From Phycisphaerales bacterium (GTDB lineage: Bacteria > Planctomycetota > Phycisphaerae > UBA1845 > UTPLA1): a DNA stretch of 53,333 nt. A program made the position numbers and the translations under genes. The DNA lies in assembly GCA_022360095.1 (NCBI GenBank), contig JAKSDK010000795.1:1-53333 (forward strand). Reading direction: 5' to 3'. This document shows, one piece after another, positions 3,457-52,818 of this stretch; within the stretch, counting starts at the first letter, position 1, and each line of letters begins with the position of its first letter. Below the pieces are notes generated by a model that was given only the letters and a program-made list of their open reading frames with translations, did no database searches and was not told where the DNA came from.

Positions 3457-4828
3457 CAGGTGAATTACAGTTTATACTGCAAGGTATGTCACCGTCGCAC
3501 GGGCATTCCAGTGCGGTCACGCATGCACACCAATTCTGCTGTATTTGATCCAGCAATTCTTGTAGCGCCTCCGAAAGCCGGTCGATTTTCTTTTGCGCCT
3601 CTTTGATAGCAATTTCGGTCAGGTCCTTGGCTTCCGCCTTTGCGTCGGCGATTGTGATTTCTGCAAGCGCCGTGGCTGCATACATGGCAATAGCATAGGT
3701 GGCCGCCGCCGTCACGGCGCAACCAATCGCTGCCCACTGACCTACAGGTGGGGGGATGAGCAAAAATCTTCCGCAAACACCTGTAGCTACAACCCACGCC
3801 AATGTTGCGGCTAACATTTGCATTTCCATTGTCTTCAATGCTGTATTGATCTTCCGATCGCGCGCTCGATTTATCTTTTCCCGTTCCAGCTTGAGATCCT
3901 CATTGATGTCATCTACGGCCTCATTGTAATCCTCCCACGCTTTGTTCTCCGCTTGGGCAGAATTATTATGGCAGTCATCGCAGTCTACTGAGTTTGGGAT
4001 CGCAAGGATATCATCAATGGCGTCGAGCAAGTCGGCCACTGAGGACGGCTGAAAATCGATATCATCGGACGGCGCCTGTTGATCGCCATCGTCGGCAGCC
4101 TGTTCCGGTTCGTCGGGAATCTCGATGAGATCCTGGAAGAGAACGCCGCACTGATCGACTTGGCCCTGGATCAGAAGATACGACACACTCGTGCCTGTCT
4201 CTGCGTCGATTCCATGTGTCGCTTCGCCGTAGATCGAAAGCTCGGCCGTCCCGGTGGAGATCGTGCCGCCGACCTGGGCCTTGGAAACCTGGTCTGCTTC
4301 GATTAGCTCCGCGTAGTCTTCCTCGGATATCGCGTTGTCCGTCAATGATTGAATAAGTTGGCTGGCCGTCGCAGTGTCCTCCACCAGATCGGAGACCTCG
4401 GCGATGAGCAATTGCTGCTCGACTGATCCAGCGATGAGCTGTCGAAGATTGACGGGCCGGTAGGTCGTGATCTCCAGCGTGAACGCGAAGCCGTGTCGCG
4501 TTGTCCCCTGGTAGACACCGTTGCCGGTCACCGGGTCATTCAACGGAAAGAGGAGGTCCCGATCGGCGTAGTTTGGAAGCTCCGTGTCCGGGTCAACATA
4601 ATCCATCCACGGTTCATCGACGCCGAAGAGTGTCTTGAAGATGTCCCGTTGTTCGTCGAGATAGGTCCAGTTTTCAGAAAGCTGTGAATAGTCTGTGTTC
4701 TCGCAAATCGGAACGGCGTCTCCGGGGGTGAACGAAAGCGGCTGGTCTCCTAGCACCACGACAGGCGTCCACAACATCAGGATCATACATAAGACGGCGG
4801 TTGCTTTTTGGTTGAATCTTTGAATCAT
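3425..4828 (-). CDS. Secreted/membrane hypothetical protein. It has a signal peptide, an acidic linker, coiled-coil segments, two TM helices and a Cys-rich C-terminus.
   Basis: The ORF track gives 3425..5047. The start is refined to ATG 4828 (MIQRFNQKATAVLCMILMLWTPVVVLG = signal peptide), preceded by AAGGAGA 7 nt upstream on the minus strand. Confidence 0.6.
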   Translation of the reverse strand: MIQRFNQKATAVLCMILMLWTPVVVLGDQPLSFTPGDAVPICENTDYSQLSENWTYLDEQRDIFKTLFGVDEPWMDYVDPDTELPNYADRDLLFPLNDPVTGNGVYQGTTRHGFAFTLEITTYRPVNLRQLIAGSVEQQLLIAEVSDLVEDTATASQLIQSLTDNAISEEDYAELIEADQVSKAQVGGTISTGTAELSIYGEATHGIDAETGTSVSYLLIQGQVDQCGVLFQDLIEIPDEPEQAADDGDQQAPSDDIDFQPSSVADLLDAIDDILAIPNSVDCDDCHNNSAQAENKAWEDYNEAVDDINEDLKLEREKINRARDRKINTALKTMEMQMLAATLAWVVATGVCGRFLLIPPPVGQWAAIGCAVTAAATYAIAMYAATALAEITIADAKAEAKDLTEIAIKEAQKKIDRLSEALQELLDQIQQNWCACVTALECPCDGDIPCSINCNSPDDSSGLEHTP

Positions 4829-9525: not shown

Positions 9526-10014
9526 ATGAATGAATCCGTCCAACCTCCAATCCTGCGCCGGGTCGAGGACAAGCTTTCGGATGAACGCATCACCGAAGCC
9601 GTGTTGCTCGATGTTCTCGACCTGGCGCTGGAACATTTTGGTTGTGTCGTCGGCACGATTCATCGACTCAATCGGGCCAATGGTCTGTTGGAGATCGCCG
9701 CCCAGCGCGGCATTCCCGACGCGATCATGGGCAGGGTCCGGATCATCCCGATCGGCAAAGGCATGGCCGGGTTGGCCGCGGAACGTCGCGAGCCGGTTCA
9801 GGTCTGTAATCTTCAGACGGATGAATCGGGCGTTGCAAAGCCCGGCGCGAAGCTGACTGAAATGGAAGGCTCGATCGCAGCACCGGTGTTGGTCGGCGAT
9901 TCCCTGCGCGGAACCATCGGCGTGGCCAAACCGCAGGCCTATGAATTCACGAAGGATGAGCAGGCGCTCCTGCTGGAAATCGGTTCGATGATCGGTAGAA
10001 GACTTGACGAATAG
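9526..10014 (+). CDS. GAF domain protein.
   Basis: 162 aa. The SD AGGAG precedes the start. The fold pattern is consistent with GAF (IPIGKGMAGLAAERREPVQV, SIAAPVLVGDSLRGTIGV). Confidence 0.55.
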   Translation: MNESVQPPILRRVEDKLSDERITEAVLLDVLDLALEHFGCVVGTIHRLNRANGLLEIAAQRGIPDAIMGRVRIIPIGKGMAGLAAERREPVQVCNLQTDESGVAKPGAKLTEMEGSIAAPVLVGDSLRGTIGVAKPQAYEFTKDEQALLLEIGSMIGRRLDE

Positions 10015-39222: not shown

Positions 39223-40581
39223 TCAGCTCTGCTGAGTCGACTCACCGGACTTCGGCAGTTTTGCTCCATCCCCCTGATTGTTCCCGGCGATGTTACCCGC
39301 GATCGACTGCGTCAGTTCTTTCAAATCGACGCCGAGGACGCCTTCCAAAGTCGCTAACGACTCGGACAACATTCGAGCCCGGGTCAGCGCGGCACCTGTT
39401 GTGGCGTGGCCGTTGCCGCTGTCGATGACGGTGACGTCTCCGAGGTTGACGTTGGCGATGGTTTTTGTCATCTCCTCGACGACTTTGGGCATCATCTCAA
39501 CGAGCATTACCTTTAACGCATCCGGGTTCTTCTGAATCGCCTGTCCGATCTGTTGGATGGCTGCGGCCCGGGCTTTACCTTCTTCCAGAATTGACGCGGC
39601 ATCGCCCTCGGCCTCGGCGCGGGACACGTCACGAGCAGCGTTCGCTTTCGCGACGTCGGTTGCTTCGAGCCGGGCAGCCTCGGACTGGGCGGCGGCCTTG
39701 TTGCGTTCGGCCTCCTTCAGCGAAGCTTCGCGAGCGAGTTCGGCCTTACGGATGCGAAGGTCGTTGTCCGACTCGGCAATGGCCTTTTCCGCGGCCAGTC
39801 GTGCCTGTTCGGCTTTTTGGTGACCCATCGCCTCTGCCGTCTTGGCTTCGGCTTCGCGGACGGCCTGAGCCTGACGGGACTGTGCGTTGGCCTCGGCTTC
39901 CTTGATATCAGCGTCGGCCTTGCGTTGAGCTTCGAATTTGCGCGCGTCGGCGCGGACTTGCGCGGATGCCTTTCGCGCGATGGACTCCAAGTACTCTTCA
40001 TCGTCGTGGACGTTCTGGATGTTCACGCTGTCAATGACGAGGCCGAGCTTCCGGAAGTCGTCACTGACTTCATTCATCACGGTCGCAACAAACTTGTCAC
40101 GATCCTCGACGACCTCCTCCGGTGTGATCTTTCCAATGACGGCACGGATGCCGCCTTCCAGCGTTTCACGGGCAACACGTTGTAATTCAGCATAGGGTTG
40201 ATCCAGAAATCGCTCGATCGCGTTTCCGCGGACGTCGGGTTCAGACGAAACCTTGACATTGGCGACGCCCGTGACAGCAACGGGGATCATCGTTCCGCCG
40301 CCCGCCTGAGCCTTAACCTCCAAGCCGACCTGCATGTTGCGCAAGCTGAGTTTCGAGACTTTTTCAAGAACGGGGATGACTAAAGTGCGGCCGCCGATGA
40401 GTGTGCGGTAGCCACGGTCCGGACCCGCTTTCTTGCCGCTGATCACCAGCATCTCGCTGGGATTGCCGACGACCATGATTTTGGCGACCGCCACGATCAG
40501 GAAAAGGAACAGGAGGAGCAGACCGGCGCCAATAATAATATATTCAATAGAGTCATCTGCGAGTATCAATGCGGAATCCAT
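39223..40581 (-). CDS. Flotillin-like SPFH/band-7 protein (YqiK/FloA-like).
   Basis: N-terminal TM, SPFH domain, long Ala/Glu-rich coiled coil. Confidence 0.8.
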   Translation of the reverse strand: MDSALILADDSIEYIIIGAGLLLLFLFLIVAVAKIMVVGNPSEMLVISGKKAGPDRGYRTLIGGRTLVIPVLEKVSKLSLRNMQVGLEVKAQAGGGTMIPVAVTGVANVKVSSEPDVRGNAIERFLDQPYAELQRVARETLEGGIRAVIGKITPEEVVEDRDKFVATVMNEVSDDFRKLGLVIDSVNIQNVHDDEEYLESIARKASAQVRADARKFEAQRKADADIKEAEANAQSRQAQAVREAEAKTAEAMGHQKAEQARLAAEKAIAESDNDLRIRKAELAREASLKEAERNKAAAQSEAARLEATDVAKANAARDVSRAEAEGDAASILEEGKARAAAIQQIGQAIQKNPDALKVMLVEMMPKVVEEMTKTIANVNLGDVTVIDSGNGHATTGAALTRARMLSESLATLEGVLGVDLKELTQSIAGNIAGNNQGDGAKLPKSGESTQQS

Positions 40582-40596
40582 GTTATGCCTCCTTCA

Positions 40597-41349
40597 TCAT
40601 GATTCATTAAGAAATTCGTGCTCTTTCTGCGAGACGACCACGGCTGTTCCTGCCCGGAAACCGACGACGCCGACGGGCTGTCCCACATCAAACGTGTCGT
40701 CTTCCCGTCTGGCGACGGCCGCAACGAAACGTTCGTTGTCGCCGATCTGAATGGCCACTTCCCCGCGATCCGGTGGTTTGATCGCGATCGTGACTCGAGC
40801 GGGTTTGTTGAGGTAATCCTTTAACTTCGTCGCGCTATCCGAGCTGCTTCGCATGAGGTAGCGAAACACCTGATGAGCGATCTGTCCGACCAGAAGCCCG
40901 CCCGCCAGCGCGATAATCAGAATCGTCGTCGGGCCCGTCTCAGACATGTAGGTTAATACGATGCCGGTGAATCCGAACATGGCCGCAAAATAGATCAGAA
41001 ATCGAATCGAGAACCAATTCGCGAGCGAAAGGGCTTCTTCGGCGGAGTGGACGGACTCGCCTTCGACGGCGGCGTCCGTCTCCATGTCGGTGTCGGCCTC
41101 GATGTCGACGTCTCCCTCCATATCCGGGTCGAAATCGACCTCGGCATCTCCTCCCGTATCACTGCCGGTAAGCGTCGAGATTAACAGAAGCCCGCCGCCG
41201 ACGATCAAGCCGATCCAATACAGGCCGATCAGTGAAGGCATTTCCGCCAGCGCGGCTGAGTAACCCGATGGGTATGAAAACCAGTCGTTCATGGCGCACA
41301 CTCCGCAAAACCAGCCGGGGAGGGATATGATTCCACCCTTGCAGTCCAA
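40597..41349 (-). CDS. NfeD/YqiJ-like membrane protein partner of flotillin.
   Basis: Several TM helices, acidic loop, C-terminal OB-fold-like segment. Immediately upstream of the flotillin gene on the same strand. Confidence 0.6.
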   Translation of the reverse strand: MDCKGGIISLPGWFCGVCAMNDWFSYPSGYSAALAEMPSLIGLYWIGLIVGGGLLLISTLTGSDTGGDAEVDFDPDMEGDVDIEADTDMETDAAVEGESVHSAEEALSLANWFSIRFLIYFAAMFGFTGIVLTYMSETGPTTILIIALAGGLLVGQIAHQVFRYLMRSSSDSATKLKDYLNKPARVTIAIKPPDRGEVAIQIGDNERFVAAVARREDDTFDVGQPVGVVGFRAGTAVVVSQKEHEFLNES

Positions 41350-41466: not shown

Positions 41467-42837
41467 CTAAGACGGGCTCGATAGGCCCGTTTCGATGATT
41501 GCTCGTATTTCGGTATCGCGCACTGCGTCATCATTCGGCATGAGTGCCGCATCGCTGACGATACATGCACCGTATTGTTCCGGTGAATCTGCCGGAGCGC
41601 CGTGGCTGCCTTTGACGAGGGTTGCGTCCAGCGGCGTTTGTTTCGTTTCCATGTTGATGAACATCTCGACCGGATCGTAGCCGGGCTTGTTGTGAATATC
41701 GACCGTGTGGGCAAAGGGCGGGGCTTTGGCATCGTCGTGCCACCAATAATAGGCAAGCCAGGTGTCAGGCTCGCACACGAGGACGACTTCGCCGGAGCGG
41801 GGATGATCGATGAAATACCGGTCGTCTTCACGAACGGGAGCCTCCCTCTTTCCGCCAAGGGGAGATTGCGGGCAACGAACGTCGGCGATGCCGTCGAGGC
41901 CTTCAAAAATACCGGATACGGCATCGATGTCGGTTTTGTCTTTGACGTAGACGTGAGCAAACTGATGGTCTACGACGGCGAAGGCCAAGCTTTCTTTAAG
42001 ATTTATGAACTCAGTGCCTTCGCGTTCGTCGATCTTGACCATGCCGGCGTCGCGCAGCATTCGGTTCGGGTACAGAACCCGGGAGACGTCCGTCATGGCA
42101 TATTCACTGACGACCAGATACGCGGCCTCTTTGATGCCGATCGAATCCATGCCGTCGAAGAAACGGCCAAGTTGCTCATCGGCTTCTCTGCATGCAGCGA
42201 CTTGCTGCTCGCTGTTTGGACCGTGTTTCTGGGCCTGATAATCCAGGTGAGGAAAATAGAGATAGTTGAAGCGCGGGCGTTCGCGCTGAATCAGCCACAG
42301 CGCGGCATTGACGATCCATTCAGTGGACCTGACGTTCGCCATCGGGCCCCAGAAGTTCATCAGCGGAAAGTGGCCCAGGTCTTTCAGCAGTCTTTCGTAC
42401 AGGCCGTCGGGTTTGGAATAACACCATAGTTCGGTGCGCCCATCGGGATGGTGGATCGGTTCCGGCGTGACGATGAAGTCCGCCGCGGCGTCCTTGATGT
42501 TTTGTGGAATCCAGGCCGCTTGAGAAATGCCGCGCTCGGCCAGGCTGTCCCAAAGCTGACGGGATTCGATCAGCCCATTGCGGCCGACCCAGAGTTCCAC
42601 GTCCCCCTGATCGCGGAAGTAGAAGCCGTTTCCGATGATGCCGTGTTCGTTCGGTGTCTTGCCGGTGAGCATGTTGGCCTGAACGGGCGAGGTCACACAG
42701 GGAAACGTAGGGATCAATTCACGGACGGCGCCGTTTTTCGCGACGGCGCGGAGTCGTGGCATGTGTTCGAGGTCGCGTGTTCTCAGCCCTGGAATCGACA
42801 CGAAAATGAGGTGCTCGTATGACATATGTTGTTTCAC
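41467..42837 (-). CDS. Alkaline-phosphatase-superfamily enzyme, type I phosphodiesterase/nucleotide pyrophosphatase (NPP) family.
   Basis: LIFVSIPGLRTRDL...FPCVTSPVQANMLTGKTPNEHGIIGN (metal-ligand Asp and nucleophile Thr region). Confidence 0.7.
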   Translation of the reverse strand: MKQHMSYEHLIFVSIPGLRTRDLEHMPRLRAVAKNGAVRELIPTFPCVTSPVQANMLTGKTPNEHGIIGNGFYFRDQGDVELWVGRNGLIESRQLWDSLAERGISQAAWIPQNIKDAAADFIVTPEPIHHPDGRTELWCYSKPDGLYERLLKDLGHFPLMNFWGPMANVRSTEWIVNAALWLIQRERPRFNYLYFPHLDYQAQKHGPNSEQQVAACREADEQLGRFFDGMDSIGIKEAAYLVVSEYAMTDVSRVLYPNRMLRDAGMVKIDEREGTEFINLKESLAFAVVDHQFAHVYVKDKTDIDAVSGIFEGLDGIADVRCPQSPLGGKREAPVREDDRYFIDHPRSGEVVLVCEPDTWLAYYWWHDDAKAPPFAHTVDIHNKPGYDPVEMFINMETKQTPLDATLVKGSHGAPADSPEQYGACIVSDAALMPNDDAVRDTEIRAIIETGLSSPS

Positions 42838-43670
42838 CCGTTCAGTTTTGAAAGAAATTCGAAAGCCCTTTCGGCAGTGCGGACGGCATCGTGACTATGG
42901 CGGCTGAGTTCGACATTCACGGTGCCAGTATACTGCACGTCCCGGAGCGCTTCAAAAATCGGATCAAACGCCATTTCACCTTCTCCGAACATCAAATGAT
43001 CGTGGATGCCCGTTTTCATGTCTTCGATGTGGATGTTCAGAAGTTTCTTCCCGAACTCGCGAATTCTGTCCGACGGTGTGCCGTCTTCCAGGCAATGAAC
43101 ATGACCGACGTCAAGTGTAAGGCCGAATCGAGGATGACTGAGCTCATCCGCCAGGCGTTGAAATTGCGACAGGCGATCGACAAACATGTCGGGCTCCGGT
43201 TCGAAGGCCAGCCACACATCGTGTTGCACGGCTTTCGTCAGCAGTTCGTCACACATGTCCACCAGCAGCGTCCAGCAATCTTTCTCCGACATGGCCGAGT
43301 CGCGGGCACCCGACCAGAAGCTGACCGCTTCCGCATTGAGCCTCGCTGCGATTTCCATCGACCGGTCCAGGAAGTCCAGCCTTCGTTGTCGCTGCTCCGG
43401 GTCCGGTGTGAGCAATGTCGGCCAGTGTTTTTGACGAGAGTCCAGCAGGAACCGAGCGCCGGTTTCAACAACGCAGCTCATATTCCGGGTTTGGAGCAGC
43501 TCTACGATCGACGCCGTTTGTTCAAGAATGTCGTCATCGAAGGGGTTCAACGCACCGTAGTCCAGTGTAATCGCCACGGACTCGTAGCCGATTTCGGCAA
43601 GCACGTTGATCGCGTCCGCGAGACGGTGGTGGGCAAAGCCGTTGGTGTTGTAACCGAGTTCGAAAGGCAT
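42834..43670 (-). CDS. Sugar-phosphate isomerase/epimerase (xylose-isomerase-like TIM barrel).
   Basis: The ORF track merges this gene into a 630-aa artefact (42834..44726). The real gene starts at ATG 43670 (MPFELGYNTNGF...). Confidence 0.7.
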   Translation of the reverse strand: MPFELGYNTNGFAHHRLADAINVLAEIGYESVAITLDYGALNPFDDDILEQTASIVELLQTRNMSCVVETGARFLLDSRQKHWPTLLTPDPEQRQRRLDFLDRSMEIAARLNAEAVSFWSGARDSAMSEKDCWTLLVDMCDELLTKAVQHDVWLAFEPEPDMFVDRLSQFQRLADELSHPRFGLTLDVGHVHCLEDGTPSDRIREFGKKLLNIHIEDMKTGIHDHLMFGEGEMAFDPIFEALRDVQYTGTVNVELSRHSHDAVRTAERAFEFLSKLNG

Positions 43671-43705
43671 TTTGCTCTCTGTTTGAAGGGCTGCCGGTGG
43701 CCAAG

Positions 43706-44659
43706 CTAGGTTGAATATATCCAGCGACCGATGAGCAGCGTCGGAACGAGGAGTCCCAGCACGCAGACGCCCGCGATCCAGCCGGCAGTCGCCGAGGCCA
43801 GGATTGCATCGAACACGACGATCCCCAGAATAAACGTCTTCATCGCATACTGTACCTGTCGTGGAGAAGGATCTTTGATTGCTCGATGAATTCGCCTGGA
43901 TAGGAGGACGAGGAAGGCGAACCACAGAATCATCAGGAAGTTGTCCGAGACCATCGCCGGAAGCACGAGTGTTCCGAGCAGGAGAACGGCAGTGATAATG
44001 CCGAATCCTCCGGTCGCGAGTCGAAACTTCGTGCTTCGCCTCGCTTCCTCGAATCCGAAATAGGTCAAGGAGGCGACGTAATAGATCAATGCGATGATGA
44101 AGAACAGCCCTCCAAGATCCGTAAACCACCAACCGACCGACATCGCCATCAGGAGATTCAGCCCGCGGCAAAGCCCCATGAACACCAGACCGGAAAGCGT
44201 GCCTTTGAAAAGGAAGTTGTAGGCGATGATGGTTGCGAGCAACAGGACTCCCACCAGACCGGGGCGGAGTTTCCCGGGCAAAATGTAATCCGAATCGGTG
44301 ACTTCTCCCACGAAACCCGCAGCGCAGGCAAGCATGACCGCTATGATGGAGATTCCTGTGGCGATCAGGACCGCTTGCCTCTTTGGAATTCGGCCGGACG
44401 GCAGAGGTCGTTGCGGCCGTTCGCGACGATCCGTCTCGATGTCGCGAACATCGTTCAAGATGATTCCGGCTGCATAAAAGAATGCGGAGGCTGCCACGAG
44501 GCAGAGAAGTTGCCAGGACCAAAGTGACTGCCAGGAGCGGAGCAATTCCGAGGATCGGAGTTGGGCTGCGACAAGCCAGTAACCGGCGAATGCATCGGCC
44601 ATGGCCGTGAAGACATTGGGCAGACGAACAAGCTCGAAGTAGGCCTTGAGCGATTTCAT
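43706..44659 (-). CDS. UbiA-family membrane prenyltransferase.
   Basis: NDVRDIETDRRERPQRPLPSGRI (Asp-rich motif 1). 8-9 TM helices. 317 aa. Confidence 0.75.
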   Translation of the reverse strand: MKSLKAYFELVRLPNVFTAMADAFAGYWLVAAQLRSSELLRSWQSLWSWQLLCLVAASAFFYAAGIILNDVRDIETDRRERPQRPLPSGRIPKRQAVLIATGISIIAVMLACAAGFVGEVTDSDYILPGKLRPGLVGVLLLATIIAYNFLFKGTLSGLVFMGLCRGLNLLMAMSVGWWFTDLGGLFFIIALIYYVASLTYFGFEEARRSTKFRLATGGFGIITAVLLLGTLVLPAMVSDNFLMILWFAFLVLLSRRIHRAIKDPSPRQVQYAMKTFILGIVVFDAILASATAGWIAGVCVLGLLVPTLLIGRWIYST

Positions 44660-45501
44660 AGACTCGCCGCCACGCGATCAAGATATTGTTTGGCTTCCTG
44701 GCCGGCGGTATCCGGGTCCTCGACAAACGGATACAACTCTACAGTGAGCCAGCCGTCATAATCTGTTTCGCGAATGGCCTGCAGCGTCGCGCCAAAATCG
44801 ATGGCGCCGGTTCCGGGAACGAGGTGATGATGCACTCTGGAAGCTGCGATATCCTCCACGTGATAGTGACGAGTGTGTGAAGCCATCCTGGGAATCCACT
44901 CGGCCGGTTCCTCGGCAACGCAATAGGCGTGGCCGATGTCGAAGTTCAAGGCCATGAACGGCGAATCGATCCGGTCACGGAGTTCCAGATATTGGTCAAA
45001 ACGTTCGATGAGCAAGCCGGGCTCTGGTTCGATCAACAAAAGCACTTGTTCTCGTCCGGCGTGTTCAACAATCGGTTTGAGATTTTCGACAAACAGGTTC
45101 ATCGCCGTCGCATAACCCGATTCGGACTCGATCGGTCCTCCCGGTTCGGTCGTAATGCACGGCGCCCCCAGCCGTCGCGCCATGGTCAAAGCCGCCCTGG
45201 TGTGCTCGACACGGATCTGCCGATAGTCGGCGTCCGGTTCGATCCAGCTGGGATGCCAATAGGGCTGTCTGGAATCACCAATTTTGTTCATCATGAACGC
45301 ATTGATGTTTGAGATGGCCAGGCCATGTTGATCGAGCGCACGGCGAACGTCGTCGATCCGTGCATTCGATGTTTCGGCCGGCCAGAGATGCGGCACGTCC
45401 GCCATGAGCTCAACGCCTTTGTAGCCCAAGCGCGCGATGCGCGCCAGAGCTTCCTCGATTTCAAATCGCATGTAGGCATTGGTGCTGTAAGCCAGGCGCA
45501 T
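44656..45501 (-). CDS. Sugar-phosphate isomerase/epimerase (xylose-isomerase-like TIM barrel), second copy.
   Basis: MRLAYSTNAYMRF... Its stop overlaps the UbiA start by 4 nt. Confidence 0.7.
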   Translation of the reverse strand: MRLAYSTNAYMRFEIEEALARIARLGYKGVELMADVPHLWPAETSNARIDDVRRALDQHGLAISNINAFMMNKIGDSRQPYWHPSWIEPDADYRQIRVEHTRAALTMARRLGAPCITTEPGGPIESESGYATAMNLFVENLKPIVEHAGREQVLLLIEPEPGLLIERFDQYLELRDRIDSPFMALNFDIGHAYCVAEEPAEWIPRMASHTRHYHVEDIAASRVHHHLVPGTGAIDFGATLQAIRETDYDGWLTVELYPFVEDPDTAGQEAKQYLDRVAASL

Positions 45502-45523
45502 CTTCGTTCGTTATTCAAACGTT

Positions 45524-45680
45524 TCAGCGTTGTGTCTTTTCGACTTTTCGCCGTTTTGATTTTTTGTTTTGACGTCTTAATTTTTCGTCGTTTTGACGTT
45601 TTGATTTTTTGCCGTTTAGACGTTTTGATTTTTCGACGCTTCGATGTTTTGATTTTTTGACGTTTTGATTTTTTGACGTT
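45524..45680. repeat. Imperfect 18-bp tandem repeat array (~8 units; consensus on the plus strand ~ttgacgttttgatttttt). It encodes the K/R-rich tail of the inositol-phosphate synthase.
   Basis: Visible periodicity in the plus-strand sequence at 45530-45680. Confidence 0.75.
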
Positions 45681-46897
45681 TCCCCTGCGACATATCGATG
45701 CAGCATCTCAACCTGGGCCGCGAAACCGTGTTCGGAAACCCCCATGGGTGATTTGAAAAAACAGGCCAGGTGCTTCATGACACCGGTATGTCCCTGTTCG
45801 GCATGGTAGTCAGCCAGCCGGGCCAGGTCGATAATCAGAGGCGCCGCAAGGATTGAATCACAACCCTGCCAGACGAATTGCAGGCTCATCTTGGTCCCGA
45901 GGAAACCGCGAAAATGCACGTGATCCCAGGCCGTCTTCCAATCGTGGAGCGATTCCACGTACTCGATCGACGTGCGCGTCTGAGGAGGATAGCCCACGAG
46001 GGACGCGATGACCCCATTCTTGGTTTCAAGTTTGGCGGCCTTGTTCGGGGACGAATCCAGGACCATGCCGTCGCCGTTGCCAAGAACATTGTGACCGACC
46101 CAGCTTTCAATCTTCAGATGTCTTTCACGGAACATAGGCGCCAGGACGGTCTTCAAGAGAGTCTCACCGGTCTTGGCATCGGAGCCCATAAACGGGACAC
46201 CTTGCATCTCCGCTAACTCGTGAATTGCCGGGACTTCCACGCCTAACGAAGGCGTGAAGCTCACGAAAGGCATGTTTTCTTCAATGGCGGCCACGGCATA
46301 GAGACTGCTGGCGGGCAGGGGAGAAGTCCTTTGTGAAAGTGCTTTGTCGAGCTTCGACCAGTTTCGATGCGTGGCGGTAAGTTTATAGGCCGGCTCGGTC
46401 GACGCGACGTGCACAACGACGACGCGGTGGAGCCGGTGACGACGACGAAACAGGCGAAGGTCGTTGCGGAGCTGACCAATGATATGTCTGGCACTGGTCT
46501 TCTTACGGGCGCCTGACCGCGTCGCCAGCCTGCTGATGGCGTGGCCGCATCGGATGGCCGTACCTGTTCGGATGTTCTTTTCATATTTCGCAAGAGCCGG
46601 CTTGACGGCCCTGAGCATCAGCTCATCAAAGATCCCACTGTTACGGCGGAGTTCGTCTGCTGATTGGGCGACGCTCCGGCGGCTGATTTCATGTCCTCCA
46701 AGCGTGATATTAGAGAGGGGCGCCAGAAGGAGTTTGGCGAGCGGCGCCTGATCCGTGACAAGTCCAATGGGCGGCGTCAGCTTTTTTTGGAGGGCGGCAA
46801 GCCCTACGGCCACAGTTGTCGCAACATTGCCTGACGCGCCGATGAGCCAGATACCTAACTTTCTTTGAGATTTAGCCAAAGCGGATTGGTTCCCCAT
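45524..46897 (-). CDS. myo-Inositol-1-phosphate synthase with an unusual Lys/Arg-rich repetitive C-terminal tail.
   Basis: GIWLIGASGNVATT NAD-binding start, SWVGHNVLGNGDG. The tail is KNQNVKKSKHRSVEKSKRLNGKKSKRQNDEKLRRQNKKSKRRKVEKTQR. Confidence 0.8.
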   Translation of the reverse strand: MGNQSALAKSQRKLGIWLIGASGNVATTVAVGLAALQKKLTPPIGLVTDQAPLAKLLLAPLSNITLGGHEISRRSVAQSADELRRNSGIFDELMLRAVKPALAKYEKNIRTGTAIRCGHAISRLATRSGARKKTSARHIIGQLRNDLRLFRRRHRLHRVVVVHVASTEPAYKLTATHRNWSKLDKALSQRTSPLPASSLYAVAAIEENMPFVSFTPSLGVEVPAIHELAEMQGVPFMGSDAKTGETLLKTVLAPMFRERHLKIESWVGHNVLGNGDGMVLDSSPNKAAKLETKNGVIASLVGYPPQTRTSIEYVESLHDWKTAWDHVHFRGFLGTKMSLQFVWQGCDSILAAPLIIDLARLADYHAEQGHTGVMKHLACFFKSPMGVSEHGFAAQVEMLHRYVAGETSKNQNVKKSKHRSVEKSKRLNGKKSKRQNDEKLRRQNKKSKRRKVEKTQR

Positions 46898-47203: not shown

Positions 47204-49576
47204 TCAAGCTTTGGCCATCCGGGTCTGGGAATGTGCCTGGATCAGCTCAATCAGCTTCTTCCGATCGATCGGTTTGGTTGTGTAATCGTCGCAGCCCGCC
47301 TTGATGCACTTCTCACGGTCTCCGGTCATGGCGTGTGCAGTCAGTGCAATGATGGGGCCGGTGTATCCCTTGACACGGAGGAGGCTGGTCGCCGTGTATC
47401 CGTCCAACACGGGCATTTGCATATCCATAAGGATAACGTCGAAAGGGTTCCCCGCTTCGACGGCCGGCATCGCCTTGTCCAAGGCAATCTGACCGTTCTC
47501 CGCGACTTCGACATCGGCGCCCGCCTTTTTGAGGACGTGCGAAATGAGTCTCTGATTGTCCGGGCCGTCCTCCGCGAGAAGAATTCGACATCCCGCGAGG
47601 GCATTTGCGTTTGCGACGGCCTTCGGTTTCTTGGTCTTGACGACGTTCGTCGACCTGGGACTCTCGACCATTCGCACGCCGTCAAGAGGTCCTGTGGTGA
47701 CCGTTGCTCGGAATCGTGTGCCGACGCCCTCCTGGGTGTCCACAATGGAGATATCGCCGCCGAGCATTTCCGCGAATCGTTTGCTGATCGTGAGTCCGAG
47801 GCCGGTTCCGCCGAACTGGCGTGCCATTGATGTGTCGCCTTGACTGAAGGCCTGGAAGAGTTTCGTGGCCTTTTGCTCCGACATCCCGATTCCCGTGTCG
47901 ACGACGTCGAATTGCATCATGGGGCAGGAATCATTGTCCGTAAATCGGAGGATAAGGCGTACGCCGCCGACTTCAGTGAATTTCACGGAGTTGCCAACGA
48001 GATTAAGGAGAATCTGACGTACGCGTGTCGGGTCTGATTGAATGGACTCAGGGATCGCCCCGATCGTTTCGATGTTGAACTTAAGCCCCTTGGCTTCGAC
48101 GCGTACACGTATGAGCGAGGCGACCTCGGACGCGATCTCATGTGGTGAACAGGGAATTCGCTCGATGGTCATTTTCCCGGCTTCGATCTTTGAGAGGTCG
48201 AGAATATCGTTGATGATTCCCAGGAGATGTTCACCATTGCGCCGGATGATCTCGGTGGCTTCGATGGTCTCGGGTTCAGTGACGTTGTCTGCGATCGTTT
48301 CGGTGAAACCCAGAATGGCCGTCATCGGGGTTCGAATCTCGTGGCTCATGTTCGCCAGGAATTCGCTCTTGGCTCTTGTCGCAAGGATCGCTTTGGCCTG
48401 GGCGTCCTGGAGGTTGGCGTTGATGTGAATCAACTGGTCCTGTTGCTCCTGGAGTTTCTCCTGTTGCAGTTGATGTTCACGGTTGATCTGACTGAGTTTC
48501 TCCTCAATCTTCTTTAATTTTGTGACGTCGGTTCGAATGGCGACGTATTCGCGTATTTTTCCGTTTTCGTCCTTGAACGGGACAATGGTGGCATCCACCC
48601 AATAGAATGAGCCGTCTTTCCTGCGGTTCTTGAAGACGCCCTGCCAAACTTGTCCTTTGGAGATCGTTCGCCACATGGTTCGATAGAACTCCGCGGAGTG
48701 AACATCCGATTTGACAATGCGATGATTTTGGCCGATCAGTTCCTCGCGCGAGAATCCGCTGATTTCGCAGAACGTGTCGTTGACGTACGTGATGTCACCT
48801 TTGACGTTTGCAATACTGACGATGTTGTGCTTGTCCAGTGCGAACTTCTGTGCGCTCAGATCGTGGTTCACCTTGATTAATTTTGCATTCGCCTCGTCGA
48901 TTCGATTGAGAATGGGTGTGTAAACCCGGTAGGTAAGGCCGACGGCGATCGCAATGAGCAGGAGCACCGCTACGCTCATGATCAAGGCCGATTCAAAAAA
49001 AGGCGCACGGATTTCCGATAGGTCGAATTTGCTGACGATTCCGAACGGAAGCCCTCGCAAAGGCTCGTAGGCCGCCAAGACCGATTCGCCGCGATAGTCA
49101 AGCAGCACGGCACTTCCGGATTGTCCGGATAGCGCCCGTCGCATTGGCTCGGCTGCCTCGGAACTCCACGGGATCGATGAGGTTGCGGTCGGGGAGTCGT
49201 GGCGCCGGGACAAGAGAAAGACAATCTGATCGCCAACACGTTTTGCCAGCGTGAATTCTCCGGTCATGCCGAAGTCCGGATATGACTCGTGAGCTTCGAC
49301 GAGCTTTTCGAGCGTCAGCAACGTTGGGTCGTGAATATCGAGTCTGGCGGCAAATTCCTTGTCCGATTGCGCCATTGTTTCGATGAGCCTTGCCCGACTC
49401 CTGACGGAATAGGCCAAGATCTCACCGTGCTTCTCCACGGCGGCGCCGTATAGTGCAAATACCGCGACGACGGTAACGGCGATTGTCGAGCAGGCCGTGA
49501 TCAGCGCGGAGTAAAAGAGTAGTCGTCTTCGATGATTCACCTGAATCCGTCCAACAAGCAACGCCTCGGCGGCCAT
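47204..49576 (-). CDS. Hybrid sensor histidine kinase/response regulator: TM, periplasmic sensor, TM, PAS, HisKA, HATPase_c, REC.
   Basis: H-box SHEIRTPM. N/G1/G2 boxes (LNLVGNSVKFT, DTGIGM, GGTGLGL). Receiver ILLAEDGPDNQ...DVILMDMQMPVLDG...K. Confidence 0.85.
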   Translation of the reverse strand: MAAEALLVGRIQVNHRRRLLFYSALITACSTIAVTVVAVFALYGAAVEKHGEILAYSVRSRARLIETMAQSDKEFAARLDIHDPTLLTLEKLVEAHESYPDFGMTGEFTLAKRVGDQIVFLLSRRHDSPTATSSIPWSSEAAEPMRRALSGQSGSAVLLDYRGESVLAAYEPLRGLPFGIVSKFDLSEIRAPFFESALIMSVAVLLLIAIAVGLTYRVYTPILNRIDEANAKLIKVNHDLSAQKFALDKHNIVSIANVKGDITYVNDTFCEISGFSREELIGQNHRIVKSDVHSAEFYRTMWRTISKGQVWQGVFKNRRKDGSFYWVDATIVPFKDENGKIREYVAIRTDVTKLKKIEEKLSQINREHQLQQEKLQEQQDQLIHINANLQDAQAKAILATRAKSEFLANMSHEIRTPMTAILGFTETIADNVTEPETIEATEIIRRNGEHLLGIINDILDLSKIEAGKMTIERIPCSPHEIASEVASLIRVRVEAKGLKFNIETIGAIPESIQSDPTRVRQILLNLVGNSVKFTEVGGVRLILRFTDNDSCPMMQFDVVDTGIGMSEQKATKLFQAFSQGDTSMARQFGGTGLGLTISKRFAEMLGGDISIVDTQEGVGTRFRATVTTGPLDGVRMVESPRSTNVVKTKKPKAVANANALAGCRILLAEDGPDNQRLISHVLKKAGADVEVAENGQIALDKAMPAVEAGNPFDVILMDMQMPVLDGYTATSLLRVKGYTGPIIALTAHAMTGDREKCIKAGCDDYTTKPIDRKKLIELIQAHSQTRMAKA

Positions 49577-51093: not shown

Positions 51094-52818
51094 TTACACC
51101 GATGACGCGCAGCGGCACTTTGCACGTGTGTTTGACCGGTTTTTTTGACGTCGGCGGAGGCGGCCAAGGCCCAGAAGTGTCATGGGCATGACGCTCATGC
51201 CGGTGCCTGAGGCGCAAGGCTCGCCCGCGGGTGGAGCGGTGCAGGCGTCACCGATACCGTCGTCGTCGCTGTCGGTCTGATCGGGATTGGCGACATTCGG
51301 ACAATTGTCGATACAGTCGGCCACGCCGTCGTTGTCACGGTCCTCGTCCACGACATCACAGCCGCAAAGGCCGGGAGCAACTTTGTCGGGATCGTCGGGG
51401 CAGCCGTCCTCGTCGTCGCAAACCCCGTCATTGTCACGATCGTTCGTGTTGGGAAGGCCGCCACAACCTTCGTCGACATCGCATACACCATTGTTGTCGA
51501 GATCGACGTCCGGGACACCACACCCGCAAAGACCGGGGCGTGTTTTACCGGGGTCGTCCGGACAATCATCACGGCAATCGGGTCTTCCATCCCCGTCAGA
51601 GTCGGTGTCGGGTGCTTCGCAACCGCAGGTGCCGGGATCGATCTTGTCAGGATTGTCAGGGCATCCATCCTCGTCGTCGCAGATGCCGTCGTTGTCCCGA
51701 TCGCCTTGTTTGCCGCATCCTTGGTCAAAATCGCACACACCATCGTCGTCGAGGTCGATGTCCGGGACGCCGCACCCGCAAAGGCCGGGATTGATCTTAT
51801 TGGGATCGTCAGGACAAGGATCACGGCAATCGGGTCTTCCGTCACCGTCAGAATCAGTGTCGGGCAACTCGCAGCCACAGGGGCCGGGATCGATCTTGTC
51901 GGGATTGTCGGGGCATCCGTCCTGCTCGTCGCAGACGCCGTCATTGTCACGGTCGTCCGTGTCTGGAATTCCGCAGCCGCACATGCCGGGCTCGGCCTTG
52001 TCGGGATCATCGGGGCAACCGTCAAGGCAGTCGGCGATACCGTCCTCATCACGGTCGAGCAAATTGGAGTCATCCGGACAGGGATCGTAGCAATCGGGAA
52101 TCTCGTCACCATCCTCATCCGGAAACGTGAAAGCAAGGCTCCAAGAGACCAGCATGCCGGAGTCGTTTGCGCGTTGATCATTGATTCTCAGTTGCCATTC
52201 ACCGGCGGGATCGATGAGGTCGAAGTCGCTGAGGGATCCAATCGGTTGAAAGGTTCCGCGACACTCCGAGTTCGGCCGGCTGCAACTTGACGTCAGAATA
52301 TCGATGGCCGCTTCGTCGTCGAGTGTGACGTCGATGTGCGATTCGTCGCTGTTCAAGCCTGAAATCAACACGATGATGGTTTCCGTCGGAACGTGGATCA
52401 GGAATACGTCCAGGCTGCCGCGATGGTGATGATAGATGTTTACGGAAATGTCGACGTCGTAAACGCCCTCGCACTCCGGCTGCGATTCCGGCACGAAGAT
52501 GCTCGAAGGATCCATTTGTCCTTCTGTTTGACCCGGATCCTCCGGAATACGATTCTCACAACCGTTTCCAAATTCTTCGCAATCGAACAGTATTATGGCG
52601 CTCATGGCAGAGGCGACATTCGGCGTGATCCATAACACGACCAACATCATCGGAAAAATGAAAAGACCGTTCCTCGATGGCGGGTGAATCCCGCCTCGTC
52701 TTTCCTTTTTCGATGGCATCCATCCCCGTGGCGTCGCCAAGGACAGAGGCGGAGTTCTCCATCCAGCGTGTCTTGTTTTCACGGCCCCTGACGGCCGATG
52801 TGATACGATGCGTCTCAT
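51094..52818 (-). CDS. Secreted Ca-binding thrombospondin-type-3 (TSP3) repeat protein with a C-terminal Cys/hydrophobic/Arg-rich sorting-like tail. The start is probably an internal Met (52719 or 52650).
   Basis: More than 15 repeats of D-x-D-x-D-G-x-x-D-C-x-D-x-C-P-D (DRDNDGVCDDEDGCPDNPDKIDPG...). The C-terminus is ...CASGTGMSVMPMTLLGLGRLRRRQKN. Confidence 0.7.
   Translation of the reverse strand: MRRIVSHRPSGAVKTRHAGWRTPPLSLATPRGWMPSKKERRGGIHPPSRNGLFIFPMMLVVLWITPNVASAMSAIILFDCEEFGNGCENRIPEDPGQTEGQMDPSSIFVPESQPECEGVYDVDISVNIYHHHRGSLDVFLIHVPTETIIVLISGLNSDESHIDVTLDDEAAIDILTSSCSRPNSECRGTFQPIGSLSDFDLIDPAGEWQLRINDQRANDSGMLVSWSLAFTFPDEDGDEIPDCYDPCPDDSNLLDRDEDGIADCLDGCPDDPDKAEPGMCGCGIPDTDDRDNDGVCDEQDGCPDNPDKIDPGPCGCELPDTDSDGDGRPDCRDPCPDDPNKINPGLCGCGVPDIDLDDDGVCDFDQGCGKQGDRDNDGICDDEDGCPDNPDKIDPGTCGCEAPDTDSDGDGRPDCRDDCPDDPGKTRPGLCGCGVPDVDLDNNGVCDVDEGCGGLPNTNDRDNDGVCDDEDGCPDDPDKVAPGLCGCDVVDEDRDNDGVADCIDNCPNVANPDQTDSDDDGIGDACTAPPAGEPCASGTGMSVMPMTLLGLGRLRRRQKNRSNTRAKCRCASSV

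Follow-up and report, generated by a model that had tools for sequence, protein, structure and literature searches.

The DNA analysed here, referred to as the window, is a 53,333-nt stretch (contig JAKSDK010000795.1, positions 1 to 53,333, assembly GCA_022360095.1) from a Phycisphaerales bacterium of the phylum Planctomycetota. On its minus strand, a gene for an inositol-phosphate synthase of the MIPS (Ino1-like) family (45524–46897, 457 aa) ends in a tandem array of 19 octamers. We conclude, with a probability of roughly 0.6, that this array is one copy of a dispersed (AAACGTCA)n family found mainly in the Planctomycetota, especially in the Phycisphaerae, and that the strongly basic tail it adds to the enzyme is a tolerated, frame-constrained by-product of translation running through it. 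The evidence lies in how the array is built, in the dispersed family with its positional bias, in copies translated as part of unrelated proteins, and in the array that the nearest relative carries in the orthologous gene.

Anatomy of the array

The array lies at 45534–45682 on the minus strand (about 149 nt) and was delimited using Tandem Repeats Finder (TRF), self-identity at fixed lags and a motif scan. An array was defined as at least three head-to-tail units in a row matching TCAAAACG; here there are 19 (GAAACGTC, AAAAAATC, AAAACGTC and so on), which on the coding strand are (T)CAAAACG or (T)CAAAAAA octamers, and the pattern TCAAAACGTCAAAANNTCAAAA used for the scans described below is present among them. 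One octamer has lost 3 nt and is only 5 nt long, which leaves the reading frame intact. Self-identity is 0.62–0.63 at lag 8, 0.63–0.65 at lag 16 and 0.70–0.73 at lag 24, giving a higher-order period of 24 nt (three units), and TRF reported periods of 24 at 45519–45676 (6.7 copies, score 141) and of 16 at 45591–45681 (5.7 copies, score 98).

The original prediction, which was made from the sequence alone, described imperfect 18-bp repeats at this position. A tandem array is indeed there, far beyond chance: with one mismatch at most, TCAAAANNTCAAAA matches eight times in the window, all at 45554–45676 on the minus strand, against an expectation of 0.19 (100 shuffles, none of which reached eight). 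The 18-bp period, however, is rejected both by autocorrelation, with identity at lag 18 at the background level (0.305), and by the periods of 24 and 16 from TRF. The unit is 8 nt, and the 18-mer is the 16-nt double unit with two further bases.

The GC content is 33 % at the array and about 56 % in its surroundings. The longest perfect stretch, 34 nt at 45646–45679 on the minus strand (ACGTCAAAAAATCAAAACGTCAAAAAATCAAAAC), is made up of two 16-nt double units and 2 nt and is the most slippage-prone part of the array. The gene ends with TGA (45524–45526, minus strand) followed by AAACG, a signature also found at array borders elsewhere, and a 22-nt spacer (45502–45523, minus strand) separates this stop from the ATG of the next gene. 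All motif matches are on one strand, and the locus has no inverted partner array that could form a hairpin.

A dispersed octamer family in the Planctomycetota

The exact pattern TCAAAACGTCAAAANNTCAAAA was sought in a public metagenome collection and in a collection holding one genome per species, and matched at least 120 metagenome stretches and at least 109 genome stretches; all counts that follow are among the matches listed. On GC-rich metagenome DNA, the matches consist of (AAACGTCA)n units in tandem, from 3 to more than 14 per array. According to the record titles, 83 of the 109 genome matches come from Planctomycetota (51 from Phycisphaerae, including CP070827.1 and JACKHI010000001.1, and 32 from others), 10 from Opitutales and 16 from other organisms, and several single metagenome-assembled genomes yield 6–12 matching contigs each. 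Most of the 16 others lie on low-GC DNA, as do the metagenome matches at 0.34–0.49 GC, and these look like unrelated microsatellites.

Positions were analysed for 156 de-duplicated arrays on loci with a GC content of at least 0.55. An array was counted as stop-anchored when an open reading frame (ORF) of at least 150 aa with coding-like GC at third codon positions (GC3) had its stop ending between 20 nt before and 5 nt after the array start. This was the case for 41 of the 156 when the A-rich strand was the sense strand, versus 2 when it was the T-rich strand. Typically, an array starts 0–10 nt past a stop codon and has its A-rich strand in the sense orientation, and in many cases the stop merges with a degenerate first unit (TGAAACG followed directly by TCAAAACG, or TAAACG followed by TC...). 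A further 25 have this same end next to the start codon of an opposite-strand gene, and in 17 the stop lies 6 nt or more into or beyond the array. The gene after the 41 stop-anchored arrays is co-directional in 13 cases and convergent in 15, and seven of the 13 co-directional genes start 15–50 nt past the array. From the strand bias we infer a cause at the level of the transcript or of single strands rather than double-stranded DNA binding.

The window array fits this family in its host phylum, its background GC (about 56 %) and its orientation, the gene 5′ of it having the A-rich strand as its sense strand. It is atypical in that it does not follow a stop as untranslated DNA and lies wholly inside the ORF, which places it in the minority class of 17 among the 156. 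At gene ends in the Planctomycetota the octamer seems to be a frequent and polar element that has not been described before. No description of the octamer sequence or of planctomycete short tandem repeats was found in the searchable literature, and in a published survey Rhodopirellula baltica appears only in a table of satellite counts.

Among the family loci (L004–L232; for example L006, L013, L021, L085, L132 and L194), 17 of the 156 arrays have a reverse-complement array within 250 nt (about 20–250 nt away; for example L009, L011, L023, L024, L103 and L123), and such inverted pairs would give a long A/U-rich intergenic hairpin. Other short-unit arrays (CATGACG-type, GTTAGATC, AGAAACAG, GTAGACT and ACGAGTT/ACGAATT) occur in the same intergenic regions (L022, L026, L032, L101, L116 and L119), and a GC-rich palindrome (GGTGCCCCATCCTCGC...GCGAGGGTGGGG) recurs in L032, L090 and L122. 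The array-bearing genomes seem to be generally prone to such elements.

Array-coded segments on unrelated proteins

About one tenth of the arrays are read in frame, and translated copies were found on Pfam-verified, unrelated proteins of at least nine families. Array-coded C-terminal tails are present on UvrB (ending ...GSGETSKRQNVKTSK and stop), a zinc alcohol dehydrogenase (ending ...DCETSKRQNVKTSK and stop), a Rieske ring-hydroxylating dioxygenase, a CoaC-like flavoprotein, an S41 peptidase, RibBA (where the ORF runs off the contig end and the stop is outside the sequence), an AMP-binding enzyme and UvrA. Internal inserts or linkers are found in RibD, inside the RibD_C domain, and in UvrA. 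The array peptides are always outside domains or in a loop, and the junction ETSK(R/N)Q (...ETSKRQNV...) recurs and is the same as in the window protein, whose 52-residue tail is the longest translated copy among the matches listed.

The tail had originally been presented as an unusual feature of a metabolic enzyme. That it is a property of MIPS is not supported by this comparison, since the octamer array is dispersed, usually untranslated past stops, and read through in many unrelated proteins. Predicted proteins are lengthened by such arrays, which add SKRQNVKT-type tails and linkers, and this bears on annotation, domain boundaries and structure prediction. A synthetic (SKRQNVKT)x6 peptide used as a protein query matched only four very small hypothetical proteins, a route that low-complexity scoring makes uninformative.

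Individual loci include a RibD with an in-frame insert of about 39 residues inside its C-terminal domain (L062), a UvrA with two in-frame array inserts (L141), and an ORF of 1827 residues in which an array-coded stretch joins two UvrA-like halves (L046).

The encoded tail

The tail is encoded at 45527–45682 on the minus strand and comprises residues 406–457 (ETSKNQNVKKSKHRSVEKSKRLNGKKSKRQNDEKLRRQNKKSKRRKVEKTQR), the catalytic core ending near residue 405. Its 52 residues include 15 K, 8 R, 4 E and 1 D, giving a net charge of +18, and in this respect the original account, of an array inside the ORF coding for a strongly basic tail, was accurate. The proposed hexapeptide repeat was not: the peptide repeat is an octapeptide, (K/E)KSKRxNx, and the string K-S-K-R-x-N is contained in it without itself being the repeat. 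An 8-nt unit does not divide into whole codons, so successive units are read in each of the three frames and three units make one octapeptide, with the result that a pure (TCAAAACG)n array gives SKRQNVKT in every frame. The charge encoded by the DNA unit is +3 per 8 aa, and the charge density of the tail (+18 over 52 aa) is simply the product of this coding.

Five of the 52 residues are hydrophobic. The tail is therefore not an amphipathic membrane helix or anchor, and any binding would be electrostatic; binding of this kind to membrane, nucleic acid or polyphosphate, as originally proposed, may occur. An AlphaFold2 model built from a 66-sequence alignment has a confident MIPS core and draws residues 392–456 as one continuous helix (pLDDT 87–93). 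We give this helix little weight because the alignment covers the tail with two rows and because sequences rich in K, R, E and Q are often drawn as helices by structure prediction.

The array in relatives of the synthase gene

In a comparison of 120 synthase homologs, the window protein has 55 residues after a conserved Tyr and its nearest relative (P0002, 78 % identity) has 45, and the other 118 have 3–30. A tail of this length is indeed unusual for MIPS, as predicted, and its length differs between the two array-bearing lineages. The P0002 gene is found on a TARA scaffold (L001) and on a Logan contig (L002), and its array consists of about 15 units of the octamer TCAAAACN (TRF on L001: period 8, 9.5 copies). 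The L001 array begins at the same codon as that in the window (...RETSKRQKV), encodes a tail with a net charge of +17, and is placed between YVxxE and the terminal RR. The ancestral overlap of the ...RR stop with the GTG of the next gene is kept, the net insertion leaving this stop/start junction in frame. The window, unlike L001, has acquired its own TGA and the 22-nt spacer.

The four next-closest orthologs examined (L233–L236, 70–72 % identity) have no array. The array-less genes end in YVAEALPQRKARR and stop or similar, or in YVAAN and stop in L233. In L233, L234 and L236 the stop codon of the synthase and the start codon of the following gene overlap (CGGTGA, as also in L001). The junction in L234 reads ...CGCCGGTGA, with a GTG start preceded by a Shine–Dalgarno (SD)-like GAAAGG; L235 and L236 have GGAAGG. 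The window array is an insertion or expansion in the 3′ coding end that is common to two related lineages, and because the stop/start overlap in array-less orthologs leaves no untranslated room, an array inserted there must be translated.

That the array is an assembly or sequencing artefact is scarcely credible. Low-complexity repeats can be assembled wrongly, but a second, independent ENA assembly of the window organism (L003) has an array of identical length (with 2 single-nucleotide differences in 2167 nt), a homologous array starts at the same codon in the TARA and Logan assemblies of a related organism, and about 150 nt is short enough for reads to span.

Some orthologs have basic tails of 25–30 residues with a net charge of +5 to +8 that are encoded by ordinary GC-rich, non-repeat DNA. 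The short RKxRR ending of orthologs was considered as proof of an ancestral functional basic tail, but this is weakened by its overlap with the SD-like GGAAGG and the next start codon. Among the more distant homologs, those of the Gemmataceae type (P0057, P0095, P0109, P0099 and P0078) have ends resembling TTETQRHRED or TTDEHR, which may represent another repeated DNA element read through at a gene end.

Frame constraint and origin of the tail

The genes of the operon are closely packed, and the array occupies the junction where the MIPS/Ino1 catalytic core ends and the next gene follows. Because there is no untranslated space there and no stop codon in the frame used, ribosomes would read through it. 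Three octamers would then give one SKRQNVKT-like octapeptide and the whole array the 52-residue tail of net charge +18. Selection would act mainly on the frame and on the correct termination point beside the downstream start, which would explain decay by point mutation and growth in 24-nt, frame-keeping steps, and a function of the tail as such, for instance in binding membrane or nucleic acid by its charge, would probably be secondary.

Support for constraint on the frame was obtained by comparing the window copy with 17 long arrays from other loci, which are mostly untranslated. Lag-8 identity is 0.63 in the window versus 0.80–0.95 in those arrays, where identity usually falls with distance. 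In the window, identity at lag 24 (0.73) exceeds that at lag 8 by 0.10, an excess (of 0.01–0.03) being seen in only 2 of the 17. The 3-nt loss is the only indel in the window array. When slippage was simulated, changes of +8 or −16 nt gave truncated proteins of 429 or 421 aa, and −8 or +16 nt gave an open frame that continues into the next gene. Read most simply, selection would remove the changes that break the frame, while the copy decays by point mutation and grows only in three-unit steps. The pattern indicates a tail that is translated and frame-constrained, and does not imply that it is useful.

Several points weigh against a tolerated by-product of a dispersed repeat. The numbers of matches are samples, not a census, and genes in the family loci were called with a home-made ORF and GC3 filter and not with a gene finder. 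No other octamer arrays were found in the 53-kb window or in the 21-kb L001, and the genome may not be rich in them. The non-repeat basic tails of some orthologs hint that a basic C-terminus may be favoured on this synthase, and an array kept in frame across about 22 % protein divergence (window versus L001) could be useful.

An alternative is that the tail is an adaptive polycationic appendage for which the repeat was only the raw material. It would tether Ino1 through its charge either to the cytoplasmic membrane, close to the EboC-like prenyltransferase from the same operon, or to nucleic acid or polyphosphate. Such an appendage would be in keeping with tails that are in frame in two lineages at 78 % identity and carry net charges of +18 and +17, with the long projecting helix predicted by AlphaFold2, with the tails of +5 to +8 on several orthologs, and with an integral-membrane UbiA enzyme as the product of the next-but-one gene. 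We nevertheless consider it unlikely. Proteins of at least nine unrelated families carry this same peptide, its charge is exactly that dictated by the DNA unit, and orthologs at 70–72 % identity lack it. The RKxRR ending, coinciding as it does with GGAAGG and the overlapping next start, is not clean evidence, five hydrophobic residues in 52 do not make an amphipathic membrane helix, and confidence in the predicted helix derives from two alignment rows. For this locus, the basic tail does not in itself point to a special device for localising a metabolic enzyme.

The array was also predicted to be a potential site of phase or copy-number variation. It does resemble the phase-variable contingency loci of host-adapted bacteria in being a repeat inside an ORF with a unit length that is not a multiple of three, so that gain or loss of 8 or 16 nt might switch between tail forms or alter downstream expression, as in the simulated truncations and run-on frames. 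Changes in unit number between near-identical loci also occur in the octamer family, where 2 of 21 pairs with near-identical flanks differ by one or two units. For the window array, however, a contingency locus is very improbable. Contingency repeats are long perfect runs that change in number, whereas here the units are degenerate (lag-8 identity 0.63, longest perfect stretch 34 nt), two assemblies are identical in length with no heterogeneity between them, and the window and L001 differ only by net changes that keep the frame. The array is moreover at the extreme 3′ end, past the whole catalytic core, and a shift would not switch the enzyme off.

Two other translational events were considered and rejected. 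Programmed −1 frameshifting at in-frame A_AAA_AAT heptamers would enter an open −1 frame, but this frame continues into the next gene in the wrong register and yields no conserved product, and the A runs in the array, at 6 or fewer, do not suit ribosome sliding on poly(A).

Possible role of the array in the transcript

The polarity of the family raises the question of whether the array acts at the RNA level, with the peptide incidental, as an A-rich, G-poor, unstructured inter-cistronic element presenting UC every 8 nt. It is conceivable that it would be a Rho-loading site, giving downstream polarity when translation of the synthase falters, or an unstructured leader that aids initiation at the next gene. 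The strand bias of the family (41 versus 2 among the matches listed) and its anchoring at stops, or at the starts of opposite-strand genes (25 of 156), are consistent with such a role, as are the 13 of 41 stop-anchored arrays that precede a co-directional gene, seven with starts 15–50 nt past the array. Folding of the array RNA gave no significant structure (−35 kcal/mol over 211 nt, z −1.28), so that the stretch is essentially unstructured. Published heptamer repeats of the same geometry are mostly transcribed (PMC4692102), and for the 7-bp STRRs of cyanobacteria, described as repeats without a known function, roles in transcript stability or translational coupling have been suggested (PMC2670836).

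We nonetheless regard an RNA-level role as quite unlikely for the window copy, which is covered by translating ribosomes, and array-less orthologs run the same operon with an overlapping stop and start. Rfam searched with the array at a permissive threshold gave only a chance snoRNA match (E 0.72), and a scan of the array for promoters and terminators gave none above shuffles, the one terminator-like match being antisense and within chance. The C content of the array is 25 %, which is modest for a Rho site.

A broader proposal would combine the two alternatives. The octamer arrays might be functional, strand-specific RNA elements at stops and starts (for example Rho-loading, 3′-end or inter-cistronic elements) whose repeated in-frame capture would have created polycationic helical appendages across a lineage. 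Some of these would have come into use, here by keeping the enzyme that opens a thallusin-type cyclitol pathway at the membrane, close to the EboC-like prenyltransferase. We judge this improbable. Should the arrays have an RNA function, the Planctomycetota would be a good place to find it.

Comparison with known short repeats

The closest parallels are the heptamers GGGAATC of Xanthomonas and GGGGA(C/T)T (STRR-type) of Nostoc/Anabaena, which are abundant and mostly transcribed and lie preferentially within 50 bp past stops on the sense strand, or upstream of starts in antisense, with some overlapping the end of an ORF (Rehm et al. 2015, PMC4692102). The octamer family is like them in being dispersed in multi-copy tandem arrays with a unit of 7–9 nt, in having some copies that overlap an ORF end and some inverted pairs, and in its placement, with 43 of the 156 arrays listed abutting a stop and 25 an opposite-strand start. 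It differs in its 8-nt, A-rich unit with a single G, which has no G-quadruplex potential and is not a G-rich 7-nt unit, and in its hosts (Planctomycetota and some Opitutales, versus Xanthomonas and Nostoc/Anabaena). A further difference is that the 149-nt window array is translated in full. The octamer family resembles the heptamer class in genomic placement and is not a member of it, and the rule of arrays hugging stops on the sense strand is extended to an A-rich, non-quadruplex unit.

The synthase and its operon

The product of the array-bearing gene (MCG8406666.1) was assigned using Pfam, a match in the PDB and the 66-sequence alignment, and the original identification as an inositol-phosphate synthase holds. 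Both Pfam domains score far above their cut-offs, PF07994 (NAD_binding_5) at 7.5e-52 (177.2 bits, cut-off 25) and PF01658 (Inos-1-P_synth) at 7.5e-32 (110.2 bits, cut-off 27). The best solved relative is the MIPS of Archaeoglobus fulgidus (1u1i, 2e-78), to which residues 15–388 align, the alignment ending before the tail. Lys is kept at the positions aligned to A. fulgidus K274 and K278, in line with similarity over the full length, and K289 and K293 of the synthase are invariant among the 66 homologs. The NCBIfam model for mycothiol-type INO1 reached 39 bits against a cut-off of 638. By these matches the protein is a MIPS-family enzyme predicted to convert glucose-6-phosphate to inositol-3-phosphate. 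Canonical MIPS (A. fulgidus 1u1i and Mycobacterium tuberculosis Ino1, 1gr0) share with it both domains, and 1u1i also the two lysines, but it has the extra 52-residue basic extension and lies in a different context, canonical enzymes being associated with lipid or mycothiol.

The synthase gene is the first of a conserved five-gene operon, found at 41467–46897 (minus strand) in the window, at 10001–15349 in L001 and at 4762–10018 in L236, with a MIPS-family gene in first position in all three; the order of synthase and TIM barrel gene is also found in L233–L236 and L001. In the window, all on the minus strand, the synthase is followed by a xylose-isomerase-like TIM barrel (PF01261, 44656–45501), a UbiA-family prenyltransferase (43706–44659) that is closest to EboC (NF035940, 8.9e-50, 169.7 bits, cut-off 250) with the SCO3242 family as its next best match, a second xylose-isomerase-like TIM barrel (42834–43670, 278 aa from MPFELGY), and, in an EboF-like position, a member of the type I phosphodiesterase/nucleotide pyrophosphatase family (41467–42837, PF01663, 9.7e-52).

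Clusters of ebo/ino genes have been associated with a prenylated cyclitol and linked to thallusin, and an arrangement with inositol-3-phosphate synthase and no eboD was described for the Actinomycetota, the ebo genes of Planctomycetota being reported as unclustered (preprint 10.64898/2026.05.21.724671). The window operon is like these clusters in bringing together an EboC-like UbiA enzyme, xylose-isomerase-like TIM barrels and a phosphodiesterase of the alkaline phosphatase superfamily, and like the actinomycetotal arrangement in having an inositol-3-phosphate synthase and no eboD. Unlike ebo clusters, it scores below the curated cut-offs for EboC (169.7 bits, the best match) and, weakly, for EboE (27 bits), both cut-offs being 250, and no EboA or EboB (TatD) was seen in it. 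It is also compact, in contrast to the unclustered genes reported for the phylum. On these matches the operon looks like the eboD-less 'ino' type of ebo cluster.

Other features of the window

Directly upstream, about 300 nt from the synthase gene, is a gene for a hybrid PAS histidine kinase with a receiver domain (47204–49576 on the minus strand in the window, 7090–9699 in L001), which could be the regulator of the operon. Past the operon is a gene for a flotillin-like SPFH/Band 7 protein, preceded by one for a membrane protein with no Pfam match that is possibly NfeD-like (39223–41349 on the minus strand in the window, 16830–18887 in L001). In L001, a GDSL-lipase-like gene on the opposite strand lies between the operon and this pair.

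The window also contains a 252-bp tandem duplication (51460–51955, 2.0 copies, 82 % matches) within an ORF at 51094–52818 on the minus strand. The 574-residue protein encoded there includes a proprotein-convertase P-domain and Asp-rich calcium-binding repeats like those of thrombospondin type 3.

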